From: Candidatus Pacearchaeota archaeon CG_4_10_14_0_2_um_filter_35_33
GTDB taxonomy: Archaea > Nanobdellota > Nanobdellia > Pacearchaeales > GW2011-AR1
Reading direction: 5' to 3'
DNA: 52,232 nt
NCBI GenBank assembly: GCA_002792635.1
Contig: PFOR01000009.1
Location: 1-52,232 of the forward strand
Shown here: positions 12,096-43,366 of the stretch, in pieces
How positions within the stretch are numbered: position 1 is the stretch's first letter
Layout: each line of letters begins with the position of its first letter
Translations under genes and position numbers: made by a program
The notes under the pieces: generated by a model
The model's input: the letters and a program-made list of their open reading frames with translations, nothing else
Told to the model about the DNA's origin: nothing
Database searches by the model: none

Positions 12096-12185
12096 ATCAT
12101 AGGAAGATTGTCTTTTATTTATAAATACTCTGATTTCTGCGTAGCAGACCATTTATCCGAAGGATTAGGAACCCCCTAATAAATA

Positions 12186-13865: not shown

Positions 13866-13906
13866 CTTTTTCCTAAAAAGATGCTTTAATTTATAAATTT
13901 TATGAA

Positions 13907-14752: not shown

Positions 14753-15654
14753 GTTTTTACTCCCAAACATTTCAACAAAACCGCCTTTTCGCTCCACATC
14801 CTGTTCTCTGCCTGCTGATAAACTACACTTCTTTTAGAATCAATCACGTCATCTGTAACTTCATGCCCTCTTTTTGCAGGAAGACAATGCATAAATATTG
14901 CTTTTTTATTAATATTAAATATCTTACCATTAACTTGATATGGCTTTAGCATCTTGATTCTTTTTTTCTCCTGCGATTTAGGAACCTGGTATGACATCCA
15001 TGTATCAGTATAAATCACATCAGCATCCTTAACAGCTTTTTTAGGGTCTTTAATATATTTGTATTTACCTTTCGCAATCACTTTTGGATTTGGCAAGTAC
15101 TCTTTCTTATCTGGAGATGAAATAATGATTTCTGTTCCAGTTCTATTTCCTTCCAATATCAAAGAGTGAACAACATTATTATTCGCATCCCCAAGAAAAG
15201 CAATTTTCTTTTTTTGGAATCCGCCAAGCTTCTCTTTTATAGTTAAAAAATCTCCCAAAACCTGGCACGGATGATAATAATTTGTTAAACCATTTATTAC
15301 AGGGACATCAGCATACTTAGCAATCTCTTCAATCTGCTTATGCTCATACAACCTTGCCATAATCACATCACTATATCTAGCAATAACTTTTGAAAAATCC
15401 TTGATAGATTCTTTCTTTCCCAATGTGCTATGTGATAAATCATAAAATATTGCATGCCCTCCTAACTGATACATCGCAATATCAAACGACAAATACGTTC
15501 TTAAGGAAGGTTTGGCAAACAACATTAATAATGTCTTACCATTAAGAACATTAACAGTTTTCCTATTTCTCTTCAACTTCTCAGCCCTTATTATAACATC
15601 ACTTATATCACTCTTTTTCCAATCTTCCAAGGATAAAAGGTCTCTTTTTTTCAT
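14749..15654 (-). CDS. argF: ornithine carbamoyltransferase family protein
   Basis: KPSLRT, HPCQ, HCLP, QAENR. Confidence 0.88.
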   Translation of the reverse strand: MKKRDLLSLEDWKKSDISDVIIRAEKLKRNRKTVNVLNGKTLLMLFAKPSLRTYLSFDIAMYQLGGHAIFYDLSHSTLGKKESIKDFSKVIARYSDVIMARLYEHKQIEEIAKYADVPVINGLTNYYHPCQVLGDFLTIKEKLGGFQKKKIAFLGDANNNVVHSLILEGNRTGTEIIISSPDKKEYLPNPKVIAKGKYKYIKDPKKAVKDADVIYTDTWMSYQVPKSQEKKRIKMLKPYQVNGKIFNINKKAIFMHCLPAKRGHEVTDDVIDSKRSVVYQQAENRMWSEKAVLLKCLGVKT

Positions 15655-16535
15655 TTCACTATCTCCGTACCTTTACTAATATCAAAACCACTTATTATAA
15701 CTTTCTTTCCACCTTTTTCCAAAAACCTGATAGCAGATTCAACTTTAGGCCCCATACTTCCCGCAGGAAATTGCTCTTCCTTGTAATATTTTTTTATTTC
15801 CTTTAACTTTATCTTCCCCAGATGACGTTGTCCTTTCTTATTGTAATTGTAATAAACCCCATTAGTATCCGTAATCATAATTAATTGGTCTGCTTTTATG
15901 GATGTAGCGAGGCATTGTGAAGCCCTGTCTTTATCTATCACAGCTTCAACACCATCTAATCCTCTTGCCATTTTCACAACAGGAATCCCTCCGCCTCCAG
16001 CAGCAATTACAATTGCATTGTCATCCAAAATATCATCGATTATCTTTGTTTCAATAACTTTTATAGGTTTAGGGCTCGGAACAACCCTTCTATAACCACG
16101 ATTAGAATCTTTCTTAATAATAAATTTCTTTCCTAGTTTCTTAGCTTCTCTTGCATTATAAAATGACCCAACGAATTTTGTTGGATTTCGGAAAGCAGAA
16201 TCTTTCTTATCCACAAGAACCTGTGTAAGAACTGTAACAACTTCTTTCTTCTCTTTAAACAAATTATGTAAATTTTGTTGTATTAAATAGCCAATCTGCC
16301 CTTCTGTCTCAGCATCTATCACATCCAAAGGCATCTTTATTCCAGCTTTCTCCTGTTGTAATAATAAATATCCAGCCTGAGGCCCATTCCCATGTGTAAT
16401 CACAACTTTATTCTTTTTAATAATAGGAAATAACTTTTTCATGGCCCTTTCAGTATTCATTTCCTGAGTTTCAATGCTAGGCCTCTCGCCCTTTTTTAAC
16501 AAGGCATTCCCTCCAAGTGCTATTACAACTTTCAT
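15651..16535 (-). CDS. arcC: carbamate kinase
   Basis: ALGGNAL, THGNGPQ, RRVVPSPKP, EAVIDKD, GSMGPKV. Confidence 0.95.
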   Translation of the reverse strand: MKVVIALGGNALLKKGERPSIETQEMNTERAMKKLFPIIKKNKVVITHGNGPQAGYLLLQQEKAGIKMPLDVIDAETEGQIGYLIQQNLHNLFKEKKEVVTVLTQVLVDKKDSAFRNPTKFVGSFYNAREAKKLGKKFIIKKDSNRGYRRVVPSPKPIKVIETKIIDDILDDNAIVIAAGGGGIPVVKMARGLDGVEAVIDKDRASQCLATSIKADQLIMITDTNGVYYNYNKKGQRHLGKIKLKEIKKYYKEEQFPAGSMGPKVESAIRFLEKGGKKVIISGFDISKGTEIVK

Positions 16536-17680
16536 ATCACTTTCTCCATTCTTTTCAATGCTTTTTCAATCAATTCATATTTAGTTGCAAAACTCATCCT
16601 AACATAACCTTCTCCGTATTTCCCGAACTCTGTCCCAGGAATAACAGCTACTTTTGCCTTCTTCATCAACATATCAGAAAACTTCACACTGTTTTTTCCA
16701 TTAATGTTAGCAAACGCGTAAAAAGCACCTTCAGGCATCACAGTTTTTAATCCCATGTCATTTAATCTTGGAACAATCATATCTCTTCTTCTCTTATATT
16801 CTTTTACCATGCAATTAATATATTTATCAGGTAGGGAAAGTGCTTTTATTCCCATTAACTGCGAAATAGATGGAGGAGCAAGAGTCATGTAAAAGTTTGC
16901 CTGATTTATTTCATTAAGTAATTTGTCTCCCGTTGTTAAATACCCAAGTCTGAAACCACACATCGCATACTCTTTAGAAAATGTTTGAAATGTAATGACG
17001 TGATTATCTAATCCGTTTAAACTTCCAATAGATATATGCTTCTTATTGTAAGTTATTTTCTCATATGCCTCATCCGCCAATATTATCAAATCTTTATCAA
17101 CTGCAATATCGGCAATCTCCTCTAGTATCTTCTTCCCTAAAACATTTCCGGTTGGATTGCTTGGTGTATTAATTATTATGGCTCTTGTTTTTTTACCAAT
17201 CAATTTTTTTAATCTATCTGGATTTATATTCCAGGAATCCTCCTCATCCAATTTCAACAATTTTGGAACCCCATTTACCAACTTAATAATAGGGATATAA
17301 CTAATAAAACCAGGACTAGGAACAATTACCTCTTCTTTTTTGTCTACCAAAGTCAAAAGAGTAGCAAAAATTGCTTCCTCACTTCCACAAGAAACCATAA
17401 TATTGTCTTCGTTGGTTTTAATCTTATTTTCTTTTCTTAACTTTTGAGCAATTTTTTTTCTTAATTCCAACATCCCTTGTGGCTCAGAATAGCGTGTTCC
17501 TTTTCCTTGCTTCAATAATTTAGAACCATAATTCAATATCCTTTTATCCGGCAAAAAGTCTGGCTCTCCAGGCCCTAAACTTATTATCTTATTATCTTTA
17601 TCAATCGTTTTTTTAATTCTTGGAAATTCAAGTTGTGGGAGATTTAAATCCCTATCTGATAAATGTTTCAATAAGTCCAT
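16532..17680 (-). CDS. class I/II PLP aminotransferase (aspartate aminotransferase-like)
   Basis: GEPDF, NTPSNPTG, DEAYE, FSKEYAMCGFRLG; GAGGTG SD before ATG17680. Confidence 0.92.
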   Translation of the reverse strand: MDLLKHLSDRDLNLPQLEFPRIKKTIDKDNKIISLGPGEPDFLPDKRILNYGSKLLKQGKGTRYSEPQGMLELRKKIAQKLRKENKIKTNEDNIMVSCGSEEAIFATLLTLVDKKEEVIVPSPGFISYIPIIKLVNGVPKLLKLDEEDSWNINPDRLKKLIGKKTRAIIINTPSNPTGNVLGKKILEEIADIAVDKDLIILADEAYEKITYNKKHISIGSLNGLDNHVITFQTFSKEYAMCGFRLGYLTTGDKLLNEINQANFYMTLAPPSISQLMGIKALSLPDKYINCMVKEYKRRRDMIVPRLNDMGLKTVMPEGAFYAFANINGKNSVKFSDMLMKKAKVAVIPGTEFGKYGEGYVRMSFATKYELIEKALKRMEKVI

Positions 17681-17870
17681 GTTCACCTCAATCAAAACAA
17701 CAAATTAAACTTTTTAAATCATTCCAGAATAACAAACCTGTCATCTTTTAGTTTTATCAGATAATGCAATAAAACCTAGAACAATAAACACAATAACAAC
17801 AATAATCGTCCAAGTTGTTTTGGAATTCCTTGCAATTCCAGGGAAAAATCTTTTGGGTTATATAAATTTT

Positions 17871-29522: not shown

Positions 29523-32390
29523 ATGACCCACATCAAAAAGCTAGTCATGCAGGGATTCAAGTCATTCGCTCCTAAAACAGAAATCAGCTTCGACTCCGGA
29601 ATCAATACAATTGTCGGACCAAACGGCTCTGGTAAAAGCAACATATCAGATGCCATATCATTCGTCCTCGGCAGATTATCTGCAAAATCCATGAGGGCAA
29701 AGAAATCCTCCAACCTCTTATTCATGGGCTCCAAATATGCCAAGCCATCTCATGAAGCCTCTGTCGAGCTAGTATTCGATAACTCAAAAAGCTCTTTCAA
29801 TCTTCCAGAAAAAGAGATAAAGTTAAAAAGAATCGTAAAGAGAAATGGCTCTTCTGTCTATAAGTTAAACGACGAGACAAGAACGAGAGGAGAAATACAA
29901 GAAATCCTCGCCCACGCCGGAATCGATCCATACGGCTTTAATATTATATTACAAGGGAACATTCAAAGCATTGTGAAGATGCAACCGGATGAAAGAAGGA
30001 AAATAATCGAGGAAGTAGCAGGCATATCCATATATGAAACCAGGAAGCAGAAATCATTTAAGGAGTTGGAAAAAACAGAAGATAGGTTAAAAGAAATATC
30101 AACAATCCTAAAAGAAAGAACATCATTTTTAAGAAATCTGGAAGAAGAAAGAACCCAGGCATTAAAATTCAAATCCCTCGAAGAAACAATCAAAAAATGC
30201 AAAGCCTCTATCTTATCAAGAAAAATCCAAGACAGAAAAAAAGAACTTTCTGATTTAAGCAAATCAATTTCATCTAATTTAGAAAAAAAGGATAAAATTA
30301 AAAATCAGTCAGATAAAATCCAAGAGAAAATAAACCAATTAACAAAAAAAGTTGAAGAAATAAATACCCATATTCAAAAATCTTCTGGCTTGGAACAAGA
30401 ATCTCTTAACACAACAATAGCAAACCTTAAGGCAGAAATAGAAGGATTAAAAGTAAGGGAAGAAAACTTTCATAACAGAAGACAAGAAACAGAAAAGAGA
30501 TTAGAAAACCTTCAAGCATCTCTGCCAGAATTAGAAGAAGAGATAAAAGACTTAAGAGAAAAATCTCCCTTGATGGCGAAAAAGCAAGAAGAATTGCAAA
30601 AGAAAAAAGAAGAGCTAAAAAAGATTCAAGAAGAAAAAGAAAACTTTCACACTCTTAAAGCAAGACTTTCATCATTAAAAGACATGATAAAAGAAAAAGA
30701 AAGATATCTTGCAAAAGCAGATTCCGACTCTGAAGCGACATTAAAAAGATTAGAAGAACTTTCTAAGAACTTAAAATACTCTGGAATCCAAGAATGTCTG
30801 CGACAGATAAAAACACTCCAGGAATCATTATCAATTAACAAGAACAAATTACAGTCAGTATCTCAAGAACATACAGAAAGCCAAAAACAAATTTCAATCG
30901 CAGAATCTAAGATTCAGGAAGCTGAAAATATCAAGCAGAAAGTAAGTGAAATAGACCTTTGTCCCCTATGCCAAACAAAAATATCTGAAAAACATGTAAG
31001 GCATGTCTTCCAAGATTCAGATAACAAAATAGCATCAGCTAAGGAATTAATAGAAAAGTCTCAAAAAACCCTAGAAAAAGCAACGAAAGAGAAAGAAAAT
31101 TTGGAATCCAGGATTAATAATCTGGAATCTCAACTCTCATCAGCTCATGAGGAATTGGTAAACCATAAATCCATCTCGGAAAAAAATGAATTGCTCCGTG
31201 AAATCCTAGAAACACAATCATCATTAAAACAAGAACTCCAGGAACTAGACAAAAAAAGGAATTCGTTAGAAGATAAAGCGATAGATTTATCAGGTATAGA
31301 AGAATCTTATCTGAAAAAATTACATGAGATAGAGGAAATATCTTCCAGAAATGAAAAAAATCTGGATCAAACACTTTCCTTTAAAGAAAGAGAAATCGAA
31401 CAAACTCGTGGTTTAATAAAATCAACCTCTGCCAATTTAGAAGAAATAGATGAAAAGCTTGATGATATAATCTCTGATTTACAAGAAAAAATGAATCTTT
31501 TGGAAGAAAAGGAAGCCGAAGAAGACGAATTATCCAAAAAATTCAAGAAAATGATTGAGGAAAGAGAATCAATACAAAAAACAATAAGCGAGGAAAATTA
31601 TAATGTAATAGAAAAAGGGAATGAGATTAGACAAATAGAAGACCAGACAAACACGCTAAAAATAGCACAGGCGAAAATTGATGCAACTAAAGATGCTCTG
31701 GAAATGGAAATCAAGGACTTCCCTGATGTAGAATTAATAAAAGGCACAATACAAGTTTTAGAAGAAAGACTTGTGAAAGCCCAGGATGCCATAAACAGAA
31801 TCGGCTCTATAAACCTAAAAGCTCTTGAAGTATACGAGGAAGTAAAAGAGGATTACGACAAGATAAAAGAAAGAGCAGATAAAATAGAATCAGAAAAAGA
31901 TGAAATCCTCAGGATTATCGCAGAAATCGATAAGAAGAAAAAAAGAAGTTTCATGAAATCATTTAAAGCCATTAATGAGATATTCTCAGAAAACTTTGCC
32001 AGGTTATACACAAAAGGAAAAGCATATCTAGAGTTAGAAAACACTCAAGACCCATTTGAAGGCGGAATTAACATAGCAATCAAATTAGCAAAAGGAAAAT
32101 ACTTTGACATCACATCCCTATCAGGAGGAGAACAAACACTAGTTGTCATATCATTATTATTCGCAATCCAAGAATACAAACCATATCATTTCTACATCTT
32201 CGATGAAATAGATGCAGCCCTGGATAAAAGAAACTCACAAAGACTTTCTTCTCTACTAAAACAGTATATGCAAAACGGTCAGTATATTGTCATAACACAT
32301 AATGATGCAATAATCACAGATTCCAATGTTCTTTATGGAGTCTCCATGCATGATGGGATTTCAAAGATTCTAAGTATGAAGTTGGATTGA
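29523..32390 (+). CDS. smc: Smc chromosome segregation ATPase with a central CPLC motif
   Basis: GFKSF, GPNGSGKSNISDAI, LSGGE, FDEIDAALD; long coiled coils. Confidence 0.9.
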   Translation: MTHIKKLVMQGFKSFAPKTEISFDSGINTIVGPNGSGKSNISDAISFVLGRLSAKSMRAKKSSNLLFMGSKYAKPSHEASVELVFDNSKSSFNLPEKEIKLKRIVKRNGSSVYKLNDETRTRGEIQEILAHAGIDPYGFNIILQGNIQSIVKMQPDERRKIIEEVAGISIYETRKQKSFKELEKTEDRLKEISTILKERTSFLRNLEEERTQALKFKSLEETIKKCKASILSRKIQDRKKELSDLSKSISSNLEKKDKIKNQSDKIQEKINQLTKKVEEINTHIQKSSGLEQESLNTTIANLKAEIEGLKVREENFHNRRQETEKRLENLQASLPELEEEIKDLREKSPLMAKKQEELQKKKEELKKIQEEKENFHTLKARLSSLKDMIKEKERYLAKADSDSEATLKRLEELSKNLKYSGIQECLRQIKTLQESLSINKNKLQSVSQEHTESQKQISIAESKIQEAENIKQKVSEIDLCPLCQTKISEKHVRHVFQDSDNKIASAKELIEKSQKTLEKATKEKENLESRINNLESQLSSAHEELVNHKSISEKNELLREILETQSSLKQELQELDKKRNSLEDKAIDLSGIEESYLKKLHEIEEISSRNEKNLDQTLSFKEREIEQTRGLIKSTSANLEEIDEKLDDIISDLQEKMNLLEEKEAEEDELSKKFKKMIEERESIQKTISEENYNVIEKGNEIRQIEDQTNTLKIAQAKIDATKDALEMEIKDFPDVELIKGTIQVLEERLVKAQDAINRIGSINLKALEVYEEVKEDYDKIKERADKIESEKDEILRIIAEIDKKKKRSFMKSFKAINEIFSENFARLYTKGKAYLELENTQDPFEGGINIAIKLAKGKYFDITSLSGGEQTLVVISLLFAIQEYKPYHFYIFDEIDAALDKRNSQRLSSLLKQYMQNGQYIVITHNDAIITDSNVLYGVSMHDGISKILSMKLD

Positions 32391-32424: not shown

Positions 32425-32841
32425 ATGATATTTGAAAAAGGGGAGTTGAAAACTTTATAGCCGTTTTATTTAGATCATCTTCTATCTTCAATCCTGTATT
32501 TTTCAGCAGCCTTTCTAGTTGTTTACTTTCTTGGAATTGGTTTTAGTACATTTCAGATAGGAATTCTTGTAGCAGCCATGCCCCTTACGGGATTACTTTT
32601 CGAAGTTCCAACCGGAGCAATAGCCGATATTTATGGAAGAAAGTTTTCAGTTCTTTTAGGGTATGCTATAGAAGGCATTGGATACCTATCATTATTTTTC
32701 ATACAAGACTTTTACGCAGTTCTATTAGCCTTCGCAATAATAGGATTCGGAACAACATTTTCCTCAGGAGCCAAAGAAGCATGGATCACAGATTTAATCA
32801 AAGGAAAAAAAGGAAAATATTTGAAAGACTATTTAGTTTGA
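32425..32841 (+). pseudogene. MFS transporter 5' part (TAG at 32458-32460; truncated by the R-M island)
   Basis: MIFEKGELKTL*PFYL...FEVPTGAIADIYGRKFS...FSSGAKEAWITD. Confidence 0.8.
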
Positions 32842-32845
32842 GGGA

Positions 32846-34300
32846 TTAAGCTTTAGTTTTCAACTCATTGATATCACTTAATATTTCATTTTCTAACTTC
32901 TCAATTCTTTCCATAATTTGTTCTGGTGGATCATACTTAACATCTTGATATTCAATTTCTTTATACTTTGATATGCTTAAATCCCAATCATCATTTTTAA
33001 TTTCTTCAATTGGAACAAAAAAATGCTTTTTCTTTCTATCTTCGTTATCTTCATCTTTTCTTTTTTCAAAGCTTCCTATAATATCAGGTATATCTCCTTG
33101 TCCGTCATCTATTTGTGTTCTTTTATCATCTAAACTAAAACCATCACTTTTCATGTCATAAAACCAGACTCTTTGAGTTGGCTCTCCTTTAGTAAAGAAT
33201 AAAACAGCAGTAGGAACTCCTGCATATGGTTTGAACACTCCAGAAGGCATTTTTATAACTGCGTCTAATCTGCATTTTTCTAAAAGAATCTGCCTAATTG
33301 ATTTATGGGCTTTTGAATTTCCAAATAAAACACCATCCGGAACAATAACCGCACATCTACCACCACTTGCTAAAGAATTATACATTAATTCCAAAAATAA
33401 TAACTCTGTTTTTCTAGTTTTTATTAATAAATTATCACTCATCTCAGACTCATCAATACTTCCCTTAAATGGAGGATTTGCTAAGATTAAGTCATAAGTA
33501 TTTTCTTCATTATATCTTTTTGAGAGTGTGTTTAGTTGTTGAATATTTGGCCTAGTTATTCCGTGCATCATTAAATTCATTAAAGAGATTCTTGTAAGTG
33601 TTTGATCAATATCATAGCCATATAAAGATTCTTCATCTAAGATTTTCTTTTTCTGAGCTGTTAAAGTGCTAACTCCATCTTTTTTATTGGAGTTTAAGAT
33701 ATACTCATAAGCATTAATTAGAAATCCTGCAGTTCCACATGCTGGATCTAAAATCCTATCCCCATATTCTGGTTTTGCTAAATTAACCATCATTTTAATA
33801 ATGTGTCTTGGAGTTCTGAATTGTCCGTTTTTTCCTGCTGTTTGTAATTCACTTAAAAGATATTCATACATATCTCCTTGAGTATCTTGATTTTGCTCTT
33901 TAATGTGCATGTCATTTATTATTTTCACAGCCTCCATTAAAAGCGAGGCAGTTGGTATCTCAAAATTAGCATTTTTCATATATTTAGCATAAAATGAATC
34001 TCCGTTATCTAAATTTCTTAAGGAAGGAAATACTTTATCTCTAACATGATCCATTATTTTATCAGCAGAGTAATTGCTCCATTCAGACCATCTGCAATCT
34101 TTATGGTTTTCAAAAATAGATTTAAACTTTTCTCCTGTTAATCTTGCCTCTTGTTCTTTTCTAACATTTTCATCCTCTAACCTTTTCATAAAAATTAGGA
34201 AAGATATTTGTTCAATTGCTTGTAAGGGGTTAGAGATTCCACCAGACCAAAACTTATCCCAAAGCTTCTGTATTTGTGATTTTAGTTGTGGGTGTAGCAT
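32846..34300 (-). CDS. hsdM: type I R-M N6-adenine methyltransferase
   Basis: GQFRTPRHI, DPACGTAGFL, ANPPF, VPDGVLFG. Confidence 0.95.
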   Translation of the reverse strand: MLHPQLKSQIQKLWDKFWSGGISNPLQAIEQISFLIFMKRLEDENVRKEQEARLTGEKFKSIFENHKDCRWSEWSNYSADKIMDHVRDKVFPSLRNLDNGDSFYAKYMKNANFEIPTASLLMEAVKIINDMHIKEQNQDTQGDMYEYLLSELQTAGKNGQFRTPRHIIKMMVNLAKPEYGDRILDPACGTAGFLINAYEYILNSNKKDGVSTLTAQKKKILDEESLYGYDIDQTLTRISLMNLMMHGITRPNIQQLNTLSKRYNEENTYDLILANPPFKGSIDESEMSDNLLIKTRKTELLFLELMYNSLASGGRCAVIVPDGVLFGNSKAHKSIRQILLEKCRLDAVIKMPSGVFKPYAGVPTAVLFFTKGEPTQRVWFYDMKSDGFSLDDKRTQIDDGQGDIPDIIGSFEKRKDEDNEDRKKKHFFVPIEEIKNDDWDLSISKYKEIEYQDVKYDPPEQIMERIEKLENEILSDINELKTKA

Positions 34301-34302
34301 TT

Positions 34303-34797
34303 TTACATTTCCTTAAATTTTTTTCTTAGGTTATTTATTTCTTGGATTGTCAGTTTTCCAAAGTATGCCCTTAATTCTACATTAAACCTTTGTGCAACTT
34401 TTAATCGCTCATCGCATTTTTCTTTATGTATTGGCTCAGCATCATTCATAGGTATATAATATTGATTGTCTATCCGGTCTTTTTTGAATTCAGAGAAAAT
34501 TAGATATAGATTTTCTAAATCAAACAATTCTTTTATCAAAAGCACTGCTCCAGAATGATTTTCACATTTGATTCCACATTTAAAAAATAGTGACTGAACA
34601 GTGTTGTAGATTGAGTAATAAGCTTCTGAAACTGCGTTCTCATATATTCCTGCACCATATGCAAGTTTTGCTACTTGCATGCATTTTTCACTTTTTATCA
34701 AATATGATTTAGATATTTCTTCAGAAGGGTCTACAAGCTCTAATCTTTCTTCTTGTTTTAGTTTATTCAAAAAATTTGATTTTATCATAATACTCAT
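34303..34797 (-). CDS. HEPN domain protein (UPF0332-like)
   Basis: AYYSIY..GIKCENHSG..RIDNQYY; paralogue of 4268-4750. Confidence 0.8.
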   Translation of the reverse strand: MSIMIKSNFLNKLKQEERLELVDPSEEISKSYLIKSEKCMQVAKLAYGAGIYENAVSEAYYSIYNTVQSLFFKCGIKCENHSGAVLLIKELFDLENLYLIFSEFKKDRIDNQYYIPMNDAEPIHKEKCDERLKVAQRFNVELRAYFGKLTIQEINNLRKKFKEM

Positions 34798-35362
34798 CTG
34801 CCCCCCTTATTATTACATGATTTTTTATTATTTCTTTTATTAATAAATCATTTTCATTGAATTTTCCAATTTTTATACTTATCAAATCATAGATTTTTTG
34901 TATTTCTTCTTTGACTTTCTGATTTGTTGTTTCGATGTAAACATCAATATCGCTGTCTTTTTTTGAATTTCCTTTTGCATAGCTTCCAAAAAGAATTATT
35001 AAATTGCAAGTGCATTTTCTGATAATATCTCGAAAAATAGGTTCAAGCTCTGGATATTTTAACAGTATCTTTGTAAGTTTGTAGTTTTCAGCATTTAAGA
35101 CAAATGATTTTGAGATTAAATTTTTTTTAATAAAATAAATATGATTTTTTCCAACAACCCTATAATCCAATACATTTATTTTTAGTAGTTCTTCAAGTAT
35201 TGACTGCACTCTTGTTAAAGAGGTCTTTAGTTCTTTTGCCAGTTCTCTTTGATGCATCTCTTTTTTTAAGAGGAGTAACAGTACTTCATACATATAATTG
35301 ACTTTTATTTGTGTCATATGACTTTTTAATAAGTCAGTAGTATTTAAGTCTTTTGCTTTCAT
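34763..35362 (-). CDS. wHTH + MNT nucleotidyltransferase
   Basis: LFGSYAKG..DSDIDVY. Confidence 0.85.
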   Translation of the reverse strand: MKAKDLNTTDLLKSHMTQIKVNYMYEVLLLLLKKEMHQRELAKELKTSLTRVQSILEELLKINVLDYRVVGKNHIYFIKKNLISKSFVLNAENYKLTKILLKYPELEPIFRDIIRKCTCNLIILFGSYAKGNSKKDSDIDVYIETTNQKVKEEIQKIYDLISIKIGKFNENDLLIKEIIKNHVIIRGADEYYDKIKFFE

Positions 35363-36513
35363 CTTACTAACTCCCCTTTAAATGCTTTCTGCATCAAAAC
35401 CCCATTTAATTGTTCAATTTCTTCTAACGATTGTTTTTGTTTTTCTTTTATTTTTTCAATATGCTCGACGATTGAGGCAAAGGTTTGTTGGAGTTTGAGG
35501 GGTGGAAGGGGGATTTTAATAGATTTGATAACTTGCTGAGAAATATTTGGCTGTCCACCCCCAAAACTTGAACTAACTAATTTCTTTTTGATTGAACCTA
35601 AGAAGTATAATAAATAGATATTATTTAATAGATTGTTATCTTTGGGGATTAAAGAACAAATTGCTTGGTTTGTTGTTGCTCTAATTTTTAGCATGGAAAT
35701 TTTTCCAACACTTGCCCCATACATTGCGATTAATACGGTATTTGGTTCAAGATATTTTGCACTACTATTTTTTAATCCTAATTCAGTTATTTTTTCCTCA
35801 GTATTATGGATATAACCTTTATCTAGTTCTCCGGATTTAACCCATAGTATTGTTCCATTCTCCCAATATTCTTTTTTAATCCTTGAAGGTGTTCCGCCAC
35901 TTGTAGTATCACATAACTCGCGTATTTCTTTCTCTTCAAACTTCTCCTTCAAAAACACCTCACTAAAAACACTCTTCAGATAATCATCTAAAAACTCAAG
36001 TGTCTGTTTTCTTTTTTCTTTAAGATGTTCTGCTTTTTCTAAAATTGAAACTATGGCTTTTTGGGTTGGGAAGGGGGGGAGGGGGATTTTAATAGATTCA
36101 AACCTTCCTTTAGTAATATGTTTCATAGTTGAGCCATGTGTTTCTCTCATAAACAGATTTATACTCCTCTTCACAAAATAAAATAGATATTCTTTATCAA
36201 TAAAATCTCCTTTAGGAACAACTTTGAAAATATGCTGATTTAACCACCCTTCTTCTTTATCCCAGATAAATGCGTCTAAAGTTGCAGACCATGAAATTAA
36301 TAAATCTCCTCTTTTAACTAGATATTTACCTTCAAATTTCTTTGTCGTATAATTTGGGTTTGTTATAGAGCCTGTTAAGTCTTGAATACGAATTATTAAT
36401 TTTCCTTTTGGTTCCCATTCTGAAGGTTTAAACGCCCTACCATTTACAAATTGTGCTATTTCCTTTAATTCAACTTCCTTCCATTCTACTTGATTAATTT
36501 GTTTTATTTTCAT
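35359..36513 (-). CDS. hsdS: type I R-M specificity subunit
   Basis: Two TRDs, each followed by an IPLPP..Q conserved repeat. Confidence 0.92.
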   Translation of the reverse strand: MKIKQINQVEWKEVELKEIAQFVNGRAFKPSEWEPKGKLIIRIQDLTGSITNPNYTTKKFEGKYLVKRGDLLISWSATLDAFIWDKEEGWLNQHIFKVVPKGDFIDKEYLFYFVKRSINLFMRETHGSTMKHITKGRFESIKIPLPPFPTQKAIVSILEKAEHLKEKRKQTLEFLDDYLKSVFSEVFLKEKFEEKEIRELCDTTSGGTPSRIKKEYWENGTILWVKSGELDKGYIHNTEEKITELGLKNSSAKYLEPNTVLIAMYGASVGKISMLKIRATTNQAICSLIPKDNNLLNNIYLLYFLGSIKKKLVSSSFGGGQPNISQQVIKSIKIPLPPLKLQQTFASIVEHIEKIKEKQKQSLEEIEQLNGVLMQKAFKGELVR

Positions 36514-37147
36514 TTTTTCTTTGTTCAACGCTCTTTTTTAATTCTAAAATTAATTTATCCATTAACTCATTTTGTGGCTGTAAGTTTTCATAAACCACAA
36601 CCAATCTTTTCCAAACTTCTTTTAAATCTTTACAAAATTGAGGGAAATTTGTTTCTAGTGTTTTATCCTTGCCATATACAGCATTACCAAAATCCCAACT
36701 GTGAGCTAAAACGTTTCTAACATTTTTTAGTTTGTTTAACATCTGAAACGTGTCATCAGAGATTAATTTCCACTCATCTCTTAAAATATGTATTTTTTGG
36801 GAAAAATCAATTTTGGTATTAAGCGAATCCAGCCAAGAGCCTCTAGCAGAAAAATCCTCTTTTAATATAATTGCTTGGATTATTTCATTAGTCATAAACT
36901 CTATTTTAGTAAATGAATCTAAAATTTCTCCGCGATCCAATCTTCTAGGAATTACCTCTCCAAACTCCTCCCTATGAAGACCATGACTTATATTCCCCCC
37001 ATATACTCTGAGCCATTGCTTTTTTCCAACTATAAAAATTTTTAAAGGGCGTATTCTATGATTATCCATTATTGCAATTAACTCTTTTAGCTTTTTCTCA
37101 TCTATATCTTTTGGTTCTCCAATATCTAATGTTGCTTTTCTATTCAT
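36494..37147 (-). CDS. putative HEPN RNase (RxxxxH)
   Basis: RGEILDSFTKIE...FSQKIHIL...RNVLAH. Confidence 0.65.
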   Translation of the reverse strand: MNRKATLDIGEPKDIDEKKLKELIAIMDNHRIRPLKIFIVGKKQWLRVYGGNISHGLHREEFGEVIPRRLDRGEILDSFTKIEFMTNEIIQAIILKEDFSARGSWLDSLNTKIDFSQKIHILRDEWKLISDDTFQMLNKLKNVRNVLAHSWDFGNAVYGKDKTLETNFPQFCKDLKEVWKRLVVVYENLQPQNELMDKLILELKKSVEQRKNENKTN

Positions 37148-37781
37148 TTTTTAATCCGTTTGCCTCATTTTGTATTTCTGCCTGACTTTTGCCAAGGAGA
37201 ATCCGAGAATATATTTCTTTCTTAAATAGAATACTTTGGTTATAAGCTAAAATAACATCAATAAGCCACTGAAAGTTGCTAACAAATTCCTTGTTTGCAA
37301 AAAGGACATTTTTCCAATTCTGATCCTTAAAAAAATGTTTATAGGGTACATCAGTAATAAATTCCAGGTCTTGTGCATCCCATTTAACAGGAACATGGGC
37401 AAAAATATCTCTTAGCGCCTCAAATCTTTCTAAGGTGACAGAGAGATTTTCCTTAGCCTCACCACCTAATTTTGGAAATGCATCTTCAATAAGCTTTTTC
37501 ATATCTCTTGACTTAGTCTTAAATCGAGGCATATTTTCTCTCTCTCTTATTCCCCTAACTAAATGAAATTCCTTTTTTGAATGATCCATAACTAAATCTT
37601 TGCCTGTTGCAGAAATTAAATTATTAAAACACATTTCAATTATTATTGAGAACTCGATAGTAATCCCTCTTATTTCTGTCATAAATTTATGTTTTTCTCT
37701 CAAGTTTGGAATACCATCTGCAATCTTTAGGGCTTCCTCCTTCATCTCTTCAATTGTTGGAATTTTATTTTCCTTCCCCAT
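37140..37781 (-). CDS. putative HEPN RNase (RxxxxH)
   Basis: RGITIEFSIIIE...FKTK...RDIFAH. Confidence 0.6.
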   Translation of the reverse strand: MGKENKIPTIEEMKEEALKIADGIPNLREKHKFMTEIRGITIEFSIIIEMCFNNLISATGKDLVMDHSKKEFHLVRGIRERENMPRFKTKSRDMKKLIEDAFPKLGGEAKENLSVTLERFEALRDIFAHVPVKWDAQDLEFITDVPYKHFFKDQNWKNVLFANKEFVSNFQWLIDVILAYNQSILFKKEIYSRILLGKSQAEIQNEANGLKNE

Positions 37782-37784
37782 ATT

Positions 37785-38393
37785 CTACAAAACACCCCCA
37801 GTTTTATCATCAACCCAAACCCCGTTTATCTTTGTCTTATCTTCCCAAAGACTATTTTCATTTCCTTCTTTAATTGCCTTATCAAGTTCTTCCTGACTCA
37901 TCCTGGATAATTCTTTATCTATTGTCTCTCTGATTTCATCTTCACTCTCACCGACAAAACTCATATCATGAAAATTTAAATCCGCCTTTGTTAATGCCTT
38001 GCTCCATTTTTCAGCTAAATCTCTTTTGGAACTCCAAAAAATCATACCTTGTTGAATAATAGCAAAAAAATCACTAGTCAAAATAGAATAAGAAATTTCA
38101 TCTTCTCCGTCATAAAATTTTCCTTCTCCGTCTTTCAATAATTCAATATTCTTAACCGCTTCTTCATAATTAACTTCAAAAACACTCTCAACAACTTCAT
38201 CATTTAGCTTTAAAATCCTTATATCTTCTTTTGGAAGAAATTCAATAAAAGTCTCCATCAATTTACCATGTTCTTCCCTATCAAAACCAAACATCTCTTT
38301 TGACTTAAACTCAACATACCAATAAAACTCATTTTCTTTTTCAATTTCATCGGTATTTCTTCCAATTAATTCATTCATTTCTCCATTCCTCAC
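37785..38393 (-). CDS. acidic hypothetical protein
   Basis: 202-aa E/D-rich ORF in the operon. Confidence 0.7.
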   Translation of the reverse strand: MRNGEMNELIGRNTDEIEKENEFYWYVEFKSKEMFGFDREEHGKLMETFIEFLPKEDIRILKLNDEVVESVFEVNYEEAVKNIELLKDGEGKFYDGEDEISYSILTSDFFAIIQQGMIFWSSKRDLAEKWSKALTKADLNFHDMSFVGESEDEIRETIDKELSRMSQEELDKAIKEGNENSLWEDKTKINGVWVDDKTGGVL

Positions 38394-38643
38394 TTTTAAC
38401 CATTTCCCAAAGCTCTTCTTTTATTGTCTTATCTCTTTTGCCTTCCTTCAAAGACTTCATAATCTTATCATAAAAGCCAGGGTAATTATTTTTTATTCTA
38501 TCAAGTTTTAATTTAATATATTCATTTTTACATTTATCTGAGCAAAACAACAAGACTTTTTCATTTGAAAATTGCGGAGCTAACCAGATTCCAGAATTAA
38601 ATTCTTTTCCACATGATTTGCATTTTTCACTCATCCCCTCCAA
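38371..38643 (-). CDS. small Zn-binding (TRASH-like) protein
   Basis: CKSC...FCSDKC. Confidence 0.65.
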   Translation of the reverse strand: MEGMSEKCKSCGKEFNSGIWLAPQFSNEKVLLFCSDKCKNEYIKLKLDRIKNNYPGFYDKIMKSLKEGKRDKTIKEELWEMVKSEEWRNE

Positions 38644-38696
38644 CCTCCAAAAACATCAAACGAAAAGTTTAAATATTTCATAGTTCTATAATAATC

Positions 38697-38782
38697 ATGC
38701 AGGGGGACGCAACCTGACGAAAGCCACATACACTTATGTGCTGGTGTGGGGAGTAGGATTGACGGACGCCATAACCCTACAT
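38697..38782. ncRNA. candidate structured ncRNA downstream of a DUF3800-like gene
   Basis: GC-rich island in AT-rich DNA; stems GTAGGGTT/AATCCTAC and CACATA/TATGTG; alternative closing stem ATGTAGGG/CCCTGCAT. Confidence 0.5.
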
Positions 38783-38800
38783 TTATTTTGTTTTCTTGAG

Positions 38801-39268
38801 TCATTTCTGTTTATTCCTCTCTATATTTAATAAAGTATCCAAAACAAGGCTCGCTTGATATTCGGGTGTTCCTCTAATTAGTTCGCTTTCTTTTTTAACA
38901 ATTACTCTTTTACCATCAACAAATCCAACTAACTTATTAAAAGCCTTATATTGACGATTATCTATCGAAATAAAAATTATGCACTTTTCATGTTTTTTTA
39001 TGAATTCTAAAACATCGGCATATATGTCTGCATTATTATATAATTCTTTGATTTTATATCTTAAGAAAAAGGAGAGTATCTTATTTCTTTTTATCCTTTT
39101 TTTCATCGATTTAAGATATTCTTTCTTATGTCTTAGATTTTTATAATGGGTAAATTTCGTTATCTTGGGCAATAACTCAAACATCTTTTCATAACTGATT
39201 ATACTGTATCCAATAAGATTTTCTGAAAAGTCTATAAAAATGTAATAATCAAATTGTTTAAACTTCAT
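38801..39268 (-). CDS. hypothetical protein, possibly a DUF3800-like RNase H fold
   Basis: Acidic residues spaced as YIFIDFSE ... FISID ... YQASLVLD. Confidence 0.5.
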   Translation of the reverse strand: MKFKQFDYYIFIDFSENLIGYSIISYEKMFELLPKITKFTHYKNLRHKKEYLKSMKKRIKRNKILSFFLRYKIKELYNNADIYADVLEFIKKHEKCIIFISIDNRQYKAFNKLVGFVDGKRVIVKKESELIRGTPEYQASLVLDTLLNIERNKQK

Positions 39269-39461
39269 CTTTTAAAACGCCTCCTAGCTTTTTATTAACC
39301 TCTTTCTGCACAAGCTCTCTCAATTTTTGATGAAGGCTTTTTGGTTTACCATTTATGCCCTCGGTTTCGCAGATCTTCATAAGGTTGGCAAACTCCGAAC
39401 GATAAAGCTTAGTTGAGATAACTCGTCTTTCTTCACCTCGTAAAGGATTCTTTTTTACCAT
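39258..39461 (-). CDS. small putative ribbon-helix-helix regulator
   Basis: RVISTKL beta strand followed by two helices; overlaps the downstream gene. Confidence 0.55.
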   Translation of the reverse strand: MVKKNPLRGEERRVISTKLYRSEFANLMKICETEGINGKPKSLHQKLRELVQKEVNKKLGGVLKDEV

Positions 39462-39518
39462 TCAAAATACAAAAATGGAAAGTATATAAAGATTGCTATA
39501 AATCGGTCTACCGATTTT

Positions 39519-39875
39519 TTAATTATGTGCAAGTATTGGGCTAGCAAACTCTGTCTTTCTTAATGGGGGCATTGGTTGAGAGAATTGCTTGCCTTTTGAT
39601 TGTAACACAACTAAAAGCATCCATTGATTTCTAAAACTTTTATATTCAATTCTTGCAGAGTTTAGTTCAGATAAAAAACTCTTATTTATCTCAGGATTAA
39701 ACGAACCAAAAAATTCACTAGCATCCATTATTTCTATTCCAACAACCCCATCATCACTATCCAAGTCAAGAACTATTCCTTCTGACACCTCCAAACTTTC
39801 TTTAACATCTTCATTATGTTCATAAATAACTAAAATATCATTCTCATCATCGTAGTCGTATTTCATATTATTCAT
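39519..39875 (-). CDS. DUF2283 family protein (putative antitoxin)
   Basis: YDYDDENDILVI...LDLDSDDGVVGIEIMDAS. Confidence 0.82.
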   Translation of the reverse strand: MNNMKYDYDDENDILVIYEHNEDVKESLEVSEGIVLDLDSDDGVVGIEIMDASEFFGSFNPEINKSFLSELNSARIEYKSFRNQWMLLVVLQSKGKQFSQPMPPLRKTEFASPILAHN

Positions 39876-40207
39876 TGTATTTCTAAGTTTTTAAATCTTT
39901 TTTTGTTATATTTAGACAAGGTTTTCCTACCTAGAGGATAGGCAGTAATTACTCTTAATCTATCTCTAATAGTTATTATGTAAACTCTGCCTTTCCTTTT
40001 TGAATAAACATAAAATAGTGCATATCTTAATTCCTTATTGACTCTTTGCTTTTCAACAAATTTCAAATTTTTAAGAGAAAACAAATCCTCAACTACTTCT
40101 TCTTTTGTTGCCTTTATTCTATTCAAGAGATATTTTTCCAATTTTCCAAACTCAAAATCCTCTTTAGAGTACTTTTCTAATAACTCTTTAGCCTCTTTTA
40201 TTTCCAT
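39872..40207 (-). CDS. putative RelE/BrnT/DUF4258-like toxin
   Basis: Basic 111-aa protein with RVITAYP, directly upstream of the DUF2283 gene. Confidence 0.6.
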   Translation of the reverse strand: MEIKEAKELLEKYSKEDFEFGKLEKYLLNRIKATKEEVVEDLFSLKNLKFVEKQRVNKELRYALFYVYSKRKGRVYIITIRDRLRVITAYPLGRKTLSKYNKKRFKNLEIQ

Positions 40208-40208
40208 T

Positions 40209-42953
40209 TTATTTCCATCTCAATTCTTTACATTTCTTAACAACATGTTCTAATTGCTTTAATGTAAACTTATCTAATGGCCTTTCTTCTGTTAAAGGAT
40301 GTTTAGCTAAATCCTTTAGTTCAATATGCTTTGTCCTAACAAAAACTTCTTTTAATAATCTTAAAAATTTTAATTGCTCGGAGTTGTAATGCTCATTTCT
40401 TGAAAGTACATACTTATCAAATTCCATCTTTATAATCCCTTCAGGATCAGGAAGGTCTTTTAACCCAATTATTTGCCTCAAAAAGATAACAAAATCAACC
40501 TTAAGGATATTCTGCAAATTATCAATAGTCCAAGTAGGATTTAAACCAGAAAGCTTTTTTTCAATCTCTAAGAGTTCATCAGAAGTTACACCTTCACCAA
40601 ACCTAATTTTTTTAATAAGTGAATCTTTTTCTAAAAGCTCAATTAAATCAGGGTTCTCTTTAATCTCGTGCTTTATTTCTTCAACACTTAAAACAATATC
40701 CGGAGCATTTACTCTTAACATCTTTTTCCTGTCCTTTTCGTAATAAATCAATAAAGGGGCTATTTCTCTAATTAAGAAATCAGCATCATCAAAAGTCAAA
40801 TCACCCCAAAACTTATCACCTAAGACTTTTTTCAGTTCATCACTTTTTGCCTGCACAACTTCTAAACCTTTCTCCCAAATGTTCTCAACTCTTTCTTGAA
40901 CAAAATCTTGAACTTTCCAAATCTTATCCTTATCATCTTCTTTTATAGCATCAAATAGCTTAACGCACTGAGATATAAAATAATAAACCTTTGAATTATC
41001 TGTTTTAGAGTAAATCAATAAAGGGGCTATTTCTTCTTTCAATGTTTTTATGTGGTCTTTTAATTCAAACTTTTTAGAAACAACTTTTTTAATAATTGAG
41101 GCTTTCTCCATAACAACAGGAGAATCCATATCAATTGTCTTTATAGTATCTCTAATTTCTTTTTCTAATATTTTTCTTTGCTTATCATCAAGCTTTTTCT
41201 TTAATAAATCAACTTGTTCTAAGAAAATTCTTGTTTTAGCATCCATCACAGCAGATTTAGCCCTTGATTTGTCAAGCTTATGAAAAATTACATTTGAATG
41301 ATCCCCAAACTTAAAATCTAAAATTAAAAAGTTCTCTTTGACATGGATTCCATCTTTTGAAGGCAATCTATCTTTAAATCTACAAGCTTCTAAATTTCTT
41401 GTTCCTCTTCCCAACATCTGCCAAAATCTGATAGGAGAGAAAACAGGCCTTACAAAAACTAAATTACATATTTCAGGAATATCTACTCCAGTATCTAAAA
41501 CACCGACAGATAAAGCAATTCTAGGTTCATCATATCTATCAAATCTTTTAACTTCATCCATATACCTTGACCTATCTGAAGTTATAACCCTCACATCTTT
41601 AGCTAAAACAGGATATAACTTATCAAAGATTTCTTTTAATGAATCAGCATGTTTTACACTAGCACAAAAGAAAATAGTCTTACATGGCCTACCATCATCA
41701 GATTTATAGCAACGATCTACAAATTCTCTAACAATAAGTTCATTTGTTCTGGCATCTGTAAAATACCTCTCAAACCTTGTTCCCGGAAGTTCTGCCACCT
41801 CAGGATTTTCTTCTTGTTCCTTAAGAGCCTGTTTTAAATCCTTAGTTAATTTTGCCCCTTTAATTCCAAGAGTTAAAACTTGAGTATCAATAACATCCGC
41901 AACATAAGGCACTAAAACATTATCATTAACAGCAGTATCATAATCATAAGCAACTGTTGGCTTTTTATATTCACAATCAAACAAATCAAAAGTATCTCTT
42001 GTTTCCTCACTTGAAGGAGTTGCTGTAAGCCCTAATTTTAAACAATCAAAATACTGAAATAAAATATTATTCTTTTCATAAAAAGATCTATGGGCTTCAT
42101 CAAACACAATTAAATCAAATTCTGCAACTCCAAACTTTTCAAACATAGGCCTTTTTCTTTTATTGTCGTCATCGGTAAGAGTTTGAACTGTTGACGTATA
42201 AAGTGTAGCTGTATCTGAAAAACCTTCAACATTCAACTCACAAACAGGATCTGAAAAAAATGACTTAAACCCTCTTTCCTTAGCTTGATTTGATAATGAA
42301 ATCCTATCAACAACAAACAATACATTCTTAACATAACCTGCTTTAATTAAAGCATCAATAATAGCCATAGATACTCTTGTCTTTCCTGTTCCTGTTGCCA
42401 TATTGATTAAGGCAGATCTATGGCCTTTTTCATAATGCTTAAGAATCTGTTTAACTGCTTCTATACTTCTGGCACGATCAACTATTTTTTTATTTAACTT
42501 AACTTGGGAAGGTTTAATCTCATGCTCAAAAAGATATGCTCTTCTATGAAGGTCTTTTTGTGAAAAAGGAAGTAAAACTTTTCTCCTTCTGTCTTTTTGG
42601 TCTATAAAATACCATGTTTCTCCATTAGTGAGAAAAATAGGAATTGTTTTTTTGAGTTTTTTCTCAATATCTTCTTGATAAGTTTTTGCTTGTATCTCCC
42701 CTTTCTTAAAATCTACCGAACTTCTCTTTGCTTCAATAATGGCAAGAGGAGAGTTATTTTCATCTAAAAGCAGATAATCAATAAATCTATCCTTCCCTCT
42801 TTCAACCTTTCCACTAAAAGGAACATACTCTTTAGTTTTAAAATTAGATTTGAGAGAGTTTACTTCTTCCTTAATATATTTCTTCATCCATCCAACTAGC
42901 TCTAGCTTTGGATCTATTATTTTTTTTCTTGTGTCTTTCTCTGATAAGTCCAT
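40209..42953 (-). CDS. hsdR: type I R-M restriction subunit (EcoAI/EcoEI-like)
   Basis: SEKDTR..IDPKL, IEAKR, MATGTGKT, DEAHRS, LTATP, QMLGRGTR. Confidence 0.95.
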   Translation of the reverse strand: MDLSEKDTRKKIIDPKLELVGWMKKYIKEEVNSLKSNFKTKEYVPFSGKVERGKDRFIDYLLLDENNSPLAIIEAKRSSVDFKKGEIQAKTYQEDIEKKLKKTIPIFLTNGETWYFIDQKDRRRKVLLPFSQKDLHRRAYLFEHEIKPSQVKLNKKIVDRARSIEAVKQILKHYEKGHRSALINMATGTGKTRVSMAIIDALIKAGYVKNVLFVVDRISLSNQAKERGFKSFFSDPVCELNVEGFSDTATLYTSTVQTLTDDDNKRKRPMFEKFGVAEFDLIVFDEAHRSFYEKNNILFQYFDCLKLGLTATPSSEETRDTFDLFDCEYKKPTVAYDYDTAVNDNVLVPYVADVIDTQVLTLGIKGAKLTKDLKQALKEQEENPEVAELPGTRFERYFTDARTNELIVREFVDRCYKSDDGRPCKTIFFCASVKHADSLKEIFDKLYPVLAKDVRVITSDRSRYMDEVKRFDRYDEPRIALSVGVLDTGVDIPEICNLVFVRPVFSPIRFWQMLGRGTRNLEACRFKDRLPSKDGIHVKENFLILDFKFGDHSNVIFHKLDKSRAKSAVMDAKTRIFLEQVDLLKKKLDDKQRKILEKEIRDTIKTIDMDSPVVMEKASIIKKVVSKKFELKDHIKTLKEEIAPLLIYSKTDNSKVYYFISQCVKLFDAIKEDDKDKIWKVQDFVQERVENIWEKGLEVVQAKSDELKKVLGDKFWGDLTFDDADFLIREIAPLLIYYEKDRKKMLRVNAPDIVLSVEEIKHEIKENPDLIELLEKDSLIKKIRFGEGVTSDELLEIEKKLSGLNPTWTIDNLQNILKVDFVIFLRQIIGLKDLPDPEGIIKMEFDKYVLSRNEHYNSEQLKFLRLLKEVFVRTKHIELKDLAKHPLTEERPLDKFTLKQLEHVVKKCKELRWK

Positions 42954-43036: not shown

Positions 43037-43366
43037 GTGGTTTCTATTGCTGCAATAATAACCGTTCTAGTCTTATTTGTTCAAAGCATTGTTTTAGCCT
43101 TTGCAATCACTATCGCAACAATATTCTTCTATACAATGAAACGACCCCCTCTAAGGGTGTATTTCCATAGATTTATTCTATCGGAGTTAAGGGCCACAAT
43201 AGGCTCAATGGAAACAATAGTCCTTTCGGTAGCAAGTATAATTGCAATTCCTCTTGTTGGTTTAGCAGTAGACATATTAGGACCAAGAATAGCTATATTC
43301 CTTTCAGCAATACTATTAGCCCCAGGAATTATAATATTCTATAAAATCAAAGACGCTAAGAAATAA
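43037..43366 (+). pseudogene. MFS transporter 3' part
   Basis: LRATIGSM..IAIPLVGLAVDILGPR C-terminal MFS helices; same strand as the 5' part at 32425. Confidence 0.7.

Follow-up and report, generated by a model that had tools for sequence, protein, structure and literature searches.

According to our analysis, positions 29523 to 32390 on the forward strand of contig PFOR01000009.1, a stretch of 52,232 nucleotides (hereafter the window) from Candidatus Pacearchaeota archaeon CG_4_10_14_0_2_um_filter_35_33, carry an intact open reading frame (ORF), running from ATG to TGA, which encodes a structural maintenance of chromosomes (SMC)-like protein of 955 amino acids (aa). The two halves of its ATPase head, as delimited by head-only profile scans and alignment, occupy residues 1 to 167 (29523..30023) and about 801 to 955 (31923..32387). 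According to the helices of an AlphaFold2 (AF2) model, they enclose an N-terminal coiled-coil arm at residues 168 to 476 (30024..30950, about 309 aa) and a C-terminal coiled-coil arm from residue 489 to about 800 (30987..31922). The arms are connected by the apex turn IDLCPLCQTKIS at residues 477 to 488 (30951..30986), a non-helical turn between long helices that contains a putative zinc-hook motif, CPLC. A first-pass annotation had read this gene as a condensin-type Smc with a Rad50-like zinc hook in place of a hinge, and we consider that reading likely to be correct. The ORF and a motif scan bear out the length of 955 aa and the position of CPLC about the midpoint; the protein contains four cysteines in total, and its sole CxxC is the CPLC at residues 480 to 483 (nucleotides 30960-30971). 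The protein database holds a copy of the same gene (P0002) as a 666-aa form with 100% identity and 70% coverage; since this form starts only at residue 290 of the ORF, the source annotation probably truncated the gene. The names given to such proteins by annotation pipelines vary ("SMC," "AAA family ATPase," and "hypothetical").

At the level of the whole protein, the Pfam domain SMC_N spans residues 3 to 947 (171 bits), and the NCBIfam models SMC_prok_B and SMC_prok_A score 553.7 and 545.6 bits, compared with 109.7 bits for the best Rad50 model (cut-off, 700) and 105.7 bits for the model of the archaea-specific SMC-related proteins (ASRPs). Because coiled coils inflate whole-protein profile scores, the heads were also scanned alone. 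Residues 1 to 170 gave 211.4 bits with SMC_prok_A versus 59.3 bits with the best Rad50 model and 24.6 bits with the ASRP model, while residues 791 to 955 gave 170 bits with SMC_prok_B versus 32.3 bits with the best Rad50 model. The best sequence match in the PDB is the Smc head of Pyrococcus yayanosii (5xei_A, 353 bits), whereas the best Rad50 chain reaches 52.8 bits, and the full-length AF2 model superposes on Smc heads crystallized with the ScpA C-domain with template modeling (TM) scores of 0.90 (5xns_A) and 0.91 (4i99_B). The heads are of the SMC type, as the first-pass annotation had claimed; a grouping with Rad50, which it had named as one outcome that would speak against it, is contradicted by the head-only scores, by the PDB matches, and by the trees described below.

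All the motifs listed by that annotation were found, namely, GFKSF (residues 11 to 15), GPNGSGKS (residues 32 to 39), KSNISDAISFVLG, LSGGE (residues 866 to 870), and FAIQEYKP..FYIFDEIDAALD. Within the N-terminal half of the head, GPNGSGKS is the Walker A motif (29616-29639), and the Q-loop is represented by Q144 (29952-29954); the C-terminal half contains the signature LSGGE (32118-32132), the Walker B motif and D-loop FYIFDEID (32190-32213), with D894 and E895 in the Walker B motif, and the H-loop residue H926 (32298-32300). Since these catalytic positions vary little or not at all among 40 family members, an active ATPase is expected.

The full-length AF2 model, with a mean predicted local distance difference test (pLDDT) score of 80.5 and a predicted TM (pTM) score of 0.43, displays the two long antiparallel arms, of about 310 residues each, that are looked for in an SMC protein. 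The N-terminal arm consists of helices at residues 168 to 206, 217 to 345, 350 to 414, and 422 to 476, and the C-terminal side consists of helices at residues 489 to 588, 592 to 607, 615 to 730, 743 to 758, and 768 to 828. The arms are interrupted by paired helix breaks at residues 203-218/759-767 and 346-349/607-614, which we take to resemble the joint and the elbow of SMC arms. Residues 4 to 474 align to positions 2 to 482 of the 1181-position SMC_prok_B model, and the N-terminal arm therefore extends nearly to the expected start of the hinge.

The hinge itself is absent. No match of Pfam SMC_hinge (PF06470) was found in the 955-aa protein at an E value of ≤1, and a custom hinge profile, built from 17 Pfam-confirmed hinge segments, matched none of the 121 proteins of the close set, which comprises the 120 proteins listed by the first homology search plus the query. 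The first-pass remark that no hinge is recognizable is thus upheld by both profiles, and the detection of one, which was to overturn the reading, did not occur. SMC_hinge is present in all eight sampled relatives of 1078 to 1159 aa (102 to 121 bits); the protein studied here is about 200 aa shorter than these hinge-bearing relatives, a difference for which the missing hinge, together with slightly shorter arms, would account. Compared with the prokaryotic Smc of Smc-ScpAB (TIGR02168/TIGR02169; P. yayanosii and Pyrococcus furiosus heads 5xei, 5xns, and 4i99), the protein shares the catalytic head motifs, the arm length, and the joint- and elbow-like breaks, and the alignment runs from the N terminus as far as roughly the hinge junction, resuming over the C-terminal head; the protein differs in its 12-residue CPxC turn in place of the hinge, in its length, and in scoring below both equivalog cut-offs.

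The motif that takes the place of the hinge is strictly conserved. The 120 listed proteins, mostly of 946 to 1082 aa, are 53 to 63% identical to the query (apart from P0002, the window's own fragment), and the closest named relative, at 62% identity, is designated "Candidatus Pacearchaeota archaeon." A CP[LM]C motif is the sole CxxC in 121/121 proteins of the close set (CPLC in 119 and CPMC in 2), and an alignment of 40 sequences, reaching down to 30% identity, shows no variation at C480, P481, and C483; given this, the occurrence of CPLC here is not due to chance. The lack of conservation of the CxxC in orthologues, a further outcome that the first-pass annotation held to be fatal to its reading, was therefore not encountered. 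In a wider sample, consisting of the 150 best representatives from a 50%-identity library of 1.84 billion proteins, a central CPxC is present in 33 proteins and a hinge in 100, the two never occurring together; the remaining 17 proteins, 5 of them fragments, lack both. The consensus around the motif in the family of the 955-aa protein, drawn from 142 segments, is IDxCPLCQSKITxEH. In the AF2 models of both the full-length protein and the apex, the motif lies at the tip of the arms, in a short non-helical turn between the long helices at residues 422 to 476 and 489 to 588.

The likeness of this apex to the zinc hook of Rad50 is real but weak. The best match of the central 120 aa among NCBIfam models is the middle of a Rad50 model (21.9 bits, E value of 3.4e-5), and the top match in a fold search of the PDB with the apex model is the Zn hook of P. 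furiosus Rad50 (1l8d), the human, Chaetomium, and rod-form P. furiosus Rad50 hooks being found at ranks 4, 18, and 25. The Pfam domain Rad50_zn_hook (PF04423) matches 12 of 40 family members at an E value of ≤0.1, with a best value of 5e-6, and one of them (P0010) barely passes the curated cut-off (24.5 versus 24.3 bits). With the Rad50/SbcC hook (PF04423; 1l8d, 5gox, and 6zff) the protein shares a central CPxC, which the models put where an antiparallel coiled coil has its tip, and, in the model described below, arms arranged side by side, whereas its heads are not Rad50-like, no Mre11 is encoded nearby, and the sequence likeness of the hook is marginal. Of the "chimeric or lineage-specific SMC architecture" put forward in the first-pass annotation, the placement of a putative hook within an SMC protein is supported, while what speaks for Rad50 as the donor of the hook is this weak likeness; the hook may have been donated by Rad50, or it may have arisen by convergence.

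The first-pass annotation also called for a structural model of the dimer. Two copies of residues 400 to 560 were modeled together with one zinc ion in three runs, which scored 0.61, 0.61, and 0.60, compared with 0.36 for the best control. These scores reach a pass mark; of proteins whose structures were solved as pairs of one chain, 20 of 30 also do so, compared with 1 of 23 solved as single chains. At least 85% of the contacts are common to the runs, and the partner pLDDT is at least 81. The confident interface includes residues 480 to 485 of both copies, with the pairs C480-C483, C480-C480, and C483-C483, and it also comprises arm-to-arm contacts at residues 451 to 463 and 535 to 550, in a side-by-side arrangement. 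The two-copy model thus juxtaposes the cysteines and beats its controls; what it indicates, as a prediction, is a likeness to the pairing of Rad50 hooks rather than binding as such.

As to descent, trees were inferred from alignments of heads and arms from which query residues 441 to 524 and all insertions had been removed, with only rows of 740 to 1300 aa retained, so that fragments as well as long or intein-bearing forms were left out; they contained SMC rows only, with no Rad50 or ASRP rows. With FastTree (128 rows), 24 of 25 hook proteins, together with four proteins of about 800 aa, form one clade with 99% support, placed deep among hinge-bearing SMCs when rooted on five bacterial Smc proteins. 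With IQ-TREE (quick search, LG+G4; 51 and 67 chosen rows), the hook clade was again recovered, with 100% support in the Shimodaira-Hasegawa-like approximate likelihood ratio test (SH-aLRT), and nests inside hinge-bearing archaeal SMCs when rooted on bacterial Smc. Since its nearest neighbors in the tree bear a hinge, the hook is, by sequence phylogeny, the derived state, and the family descends from hinge-bearing archaeal SMCs. The head phylogeny proposed in the first-pass annotation accordingly places the family within SMCs, among the rows considered. A scan of genome contigs with generic head patterns gave 79 loci, six of which served as reference or outgroup sequences; nearly all 79 are bacterial hinge-type Smc, and none was assignable to the hook family.

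One hook protein, P0252, falls outside the main hook clade, and a search with it gave a second hook family (P0252 and P0271 to P0389), to which its sources give the names Diapherotrites, "Candidatus ainarchaeum" (Iainarchaeum), or "archaeon." Its members, of 975 to 1025 aa, carry a central CPxC in 117 of 120 cases (CPVC in 66, CPTC in 33, CPIC in 16, and others in 2), the remaining three having neither CPxC nor hinge; a hinge was found in 0/120 proteins of this family, and its consensus is S.CPVCDS.L. In the 67-row tree, the second family forms a clade with 100% support whose sister is the hinge-bearing P0246 (100%), and the branches starred in that tree separate it from the first. When all hook rows and apex-less rows (those with neither hinge nor CxxC) were forced into one clade, the approximately unbiased (AU) test gave a log-likelihood difference of 52.7 (P = 0.020). 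Since the tested group was named after the tree had been seen, and the tree search was quick, two independent replacements of the hinge by a hook are suggested rather than established.

The proteins of about 800 aa recovered with the first hook family belong to an SMC subfamily (P0140, P0142, P0144, P0146, and P0390 to P0460) that branches inside the first hook clade or at its base. About 150 to 180 residues around the apex are symmetrically absent from this subfamily, and the gap is bridged by 70 to 126 aa of coiled-coil-like sequence. Among 96 further search matches that were examined, all 23 of 751 to 809 aa are of this apex-less type, and one apex-less protein of about 800 aa is named Pacearchaeota. 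Several hook-type and apex-less homologues (P0018, P0020, P0038, P0088, P0103, P0127, and P0405) are much longer, at 1335 to 1568 aa, and most of them carry listed intein and LAGLIDADG Pfam domains; in P0038 and P0127, the part matching the query picks up again at residue 28 or 38, which places the intein in or beside the Walker A P-loop.

Taken together, these observations lead us to regard the protein as probably a true descendant of archaeal, condensin-type SMCs that, in DPANN archaea, dimerizes through a zinc hook in place of the hinge. On this model, a 12-residue turn, approximately, with an invariant CPxC would have taken the place of the globular hinge, of roughly 120 to 180 aa, and two proteins would most probably be held together at the far ends of their antiparallel arms, each of roughly 310 residues, by four cysteines sharing one zinc ion, as in Rad50. 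ATP binding and hydrolysis would fall to the heads, which are complete and of the SMC type. By virtue of its family membership, the protein would be presumed to work with a kleisin partner (ScpA/ScpB) encoded elsewhere in the genome and to play a role in chromosome folding or loop extrusion.

Several results weigh against this view. Rad50_zn_hook, which the first-pass annotation expected to find, does not match the 955-aa protein itself at an E value of ≤1 and is detected in relatives only, as reported above. None of the fold matches to Rad50 hooks is significant (all E values are above 0.01, the top match having 0.016), and a comparison of the 86-aa apex with PDB sequences returned no Rad50 chain but only RING fingers, at E values of ≥1. 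The score of the dimer model may reflect the model's memory of like complexes, given that Rad50 hook dimers have already been solved, and the runs used a custom alignment and a riding zinc ion, unlike those by which the pass mark was calibrated. The NCBIfam equivalog cut-offs for SMC are not reached (553.7 versus 567.35 bits for SMC_prok_B and 545.6 versus 729.4 bits for SMC_prok_A), a shortfall that fits the missing hinge. The existence of close relatives of about 800 aa that have neither a hinge nor any CxxC means that this lineage may be able to do without dimerization through the apex. Finally, no ScpA, ScpB, or other kleisin domain was detected in the 51 other ORFs of the window scanned at an E value of ≤0.001. 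Mre11 and Rad50 domains are likewise absent from these ORFs, and when the 15 ORFs without a Pfam match were rescanned at an E value of ≤1, there was still no ScpA, ScpB, Mre11, or Rad50 domain; the first-pass remark that neither mre11 nor scpA lies adjacent thus applies to all the ORFs scanned.

An unlikely alternative, though the best placed of those we considered, is that the protein substitutes for Rad50, as an SMC-derived ATPase that acquired a hook and tethers DNA ends or takes part in repair with Mre11 or another nuclease in a reduced genome. A central CPxC hook is a hallmark of Rad50/SbcC, according to the available part of a review (PMC10586767), the apex finds its best, if weak, match in the middle of Rad50 models, Rad50_zn_hook is detected in 12 of 40 relatives, and the highest-ranking fold match to the apex model is a Rad50 hook. 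On the other side, SMC models give the heads 211 and 170 bits against 59 and 32 bits for those of Rad50, the whole protein remains at 109.7 bits where the best Rad50 model has a cut-off of 700, the length of the arms agrees with SMC models nearly up to the start of the hinge, and an Mre11-type phosphoesterase is absent from the window.

It seems somewhat less probable still that the CPxC, instead of hooking two molecules through zinc, serves structurally as a turn, acts as a redox or disulfide motif, or binds metal within one molecule, with pairing only via the heads or along the arms. The relatives of about 800 aa from the same clade, which keep intact heads without hinge or CxxC, fit such a scheme, as do the SMC variants of marine Actinobacteria without hinge and CxxC described in the accessible text of PMC12153180. 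The cysteines and the proline are, on the other hand, strictly kept in two families (121/121 and 117/120, and in the alignment down to 30% identity), a lone CxxC offers two ligands only, so that completing a tetrahedral site takes another copy, and the dimer model gathers four cysteines with a score of 0.61 versus 0.36 for the control.

That the protein is an ASRP (ClsN or Sph type), a group that also carries a zinc hook, is very improbable in our view. The ASRPs, including ClsN and Sph1/2, are archaeal, SMC-related coiled-coil ABC ATPases, the majority of them bearing a zinc-hook motif, as far as the consulted portion of PMC9389158 describes them, and their model does match at 105.7 bits. Yet this is well short of the cut-off of 300 bits of NF045487, the model is only 593 positions long, in keeping with proteins that are much shorter and distant, the SMC models score about 550 bits, the N-terminal head alone gives 24.6 bits versus 211 for SMC, and the family nests inside hinge-bearing SMCs in trees, albeit trees without ASRP rows.

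Least probable of all, we think, is a defense SMC-like ATPase of the Lamassu LmuB or MADS MAD3 type, which the adjoining downstream type I restriction-modification (R-M) genes (hsdM, hsdS, and hsdR at 32846-42953), the PADLOC matches to mad3 (171.9 bits) and LmuB (91.5 bits), and the CPxCG carried by many LmuB proteins (PMC10586767, in the part available) might evoke, but the Walker B residue E895 is invariant where LmuB generally has Q (same part of the same source), the SMC-like gene and the R-M genes lie on opposite strands, the contigs of relatives reach 885,770 bp, and the sources name relatives SMC. This candidate was rejected after controls: the housekeeping Smc of Streptococcus sanguinis scores 247.4 with mad3 and 87 with LmuB, and the corresponding scores for a hinge-bearing archaeal SMC are 180 and 63.3, so that the PADLOC matches are generic to SMC heads. 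Membership in LmuB also fails on length (955 aa versus about 650 aa, according to the excerpted text of PMC10586767) and on an LmuB score no better than that of the control.

In the full-text literature searched, we found no natural SMC protein with a zinc hook; most papers in subscription journals and supplements such as those of PMC8665677 and PMC9389158 were outside the scope of this search. As far as the texts available to us go, the combination of SMC heads with a Rad50-type hook has been in print so far only in laboratory chimeras. When the hinge of Bacillus subtilis Smc is exchanged for the hook of P. furiosus Rad50, the protein supports normal growth on nutrient medium and keeps the dependence on arm length (PMC5344682, partial text), and the reverse swap in the Rad50 of fission yeast is also functional (PMC6969161, partial text). 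According to what was available of the report by Burmann et al. (2017; PMC5344682), the engineered protein, Smc(Zh), has the same architecture as the archaeal one; it is man-made, with a grafted P. furiosus hook, whereas the archaeal hook SMC is natural, occurs in two families, and has its own consensus, IDxCPLCQSKITxEH. A survey classes the SMCs of DPANN archaea as "canonical," and the word "zinc" appears nowhere in its available text (PMC8665677). The hinge-less SMCs of marine Actinobacteria published in 2025 (PMC12153180, accessible part) likewise have SMC heads and arms without a hinge and fall within the diversity of SMC rather than Rad50; being bacterial and, per their authors, without CxxC, they are nearer to the apex-less relatives of about 800 aa than to the 955-aa protein.

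Reviews split these families by their apex, SMC having a hinge and a kleisin and Rad50 having a zinc hook and Mre11 (PMC10586767, available part). A broader proposal, to which we give tentative standing as a possibility well short of even odds, is that the apex of DPANN SMCs is an exchangeable module in which the hinge gave way to a hook at least twice independently, in the family of the 955-aa protein, named Pacearchaeota or Nanoarchaeota, and in that named Diapherotrites or Iainarchaeum, and was then lost in the subfamily of about 800 aa, so that the hinge would be dispensable there and hook-bearing SMC complexes might be able to link to each other in the manner of Rad50. If true, these families would amount to natural experiments on the dispensability of the hinge, and the hook might merge two functions in reduced genomes. 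It has long been asked whether the hinge has a role beyond dimerization, such as binding DNA or serving as an entry gate, and the sole test of its role that we found is, as far as the available text of PMC5344682 describes it, the engineered B. subtilis chimera. A natural hook SMC conserved in two archaeal families would show that evolution made and kept the same swap, and hook SMCs would offer ready-made proteins for tests of zinc binding, loop extrusion, and complementation.

The window, with a G+C content of 33.8%, contains archaeal-type genes for an elongation factor of the EF-1alpha type, a Toprim (DnaG-like) protein, and a TrmB regulator. The upstream neighbors of the SMC-like gene encode an RNase HII and an MscS channel. 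Downstream, on the opposite strand, lies the type I R-M cluster, with hsdM at 32846-34300, hsdS at 35359-36528, and hsdR at 40209-42953, and a HEPN/nucleotidyltransferase pair located between hsdM and hsdS (34303-35362, reverse strand); a second such pair is found at 4268-5333. Six ORFs separate hsdS from hsdR, of which four (36494-39268) have no family match at an E value of ≤0.001 and two are small (39519-40207), one of the latter carrying DUF2283. Just downstream of the SMC-like gene, an 87-aa ORF on the forward strand (32578-32841) matches only a portion of a major facilitator superfamily (MFS) transporter (MFS_1 positions 43 to 120, E value of 1.8e-9), and beyond the R-M cluster a 109-aa ORF (43037-43366, forward strand) has a very weak MFS_1 match (E value of 0.13). 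A block of about 10 kb with the type I R-M and HEPN/nucleotidyltransferase genes may thus have been inserted into an MFS gene.

Elsewhere in the window, a tRNA match at 448-573 on the forward strand (126 nucleotides, 44.9 bits with Rfam), which is absent from the ARAGORN output, is probably an intron-containing archaeal tRNA. The reverse strand carries, at 12408-17695, genes for an aldehyde dehydrogenase, an arginase-family enzyme, an ornithine/aspartate carbamoyltransferase, an amino acid (carbamate-type) kinase, and an aminotransferase, a run of amino acid metabolism that is sizeable for a genome of this kind. Also on the reverse strand are a gene for a Fic/DOC-family protein (8733-9884) and a TdeIII-type restriction endonuclease of fragment length (11586-12152; 188 aa, covering profile positions 2 to 169 of 242). 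On the forward strand, the ORF at 51034-51363 contains an HPr phosphocarrier domain of the phosphotransferase system (E value of 1.1e-12), which is uncommon in archaea.

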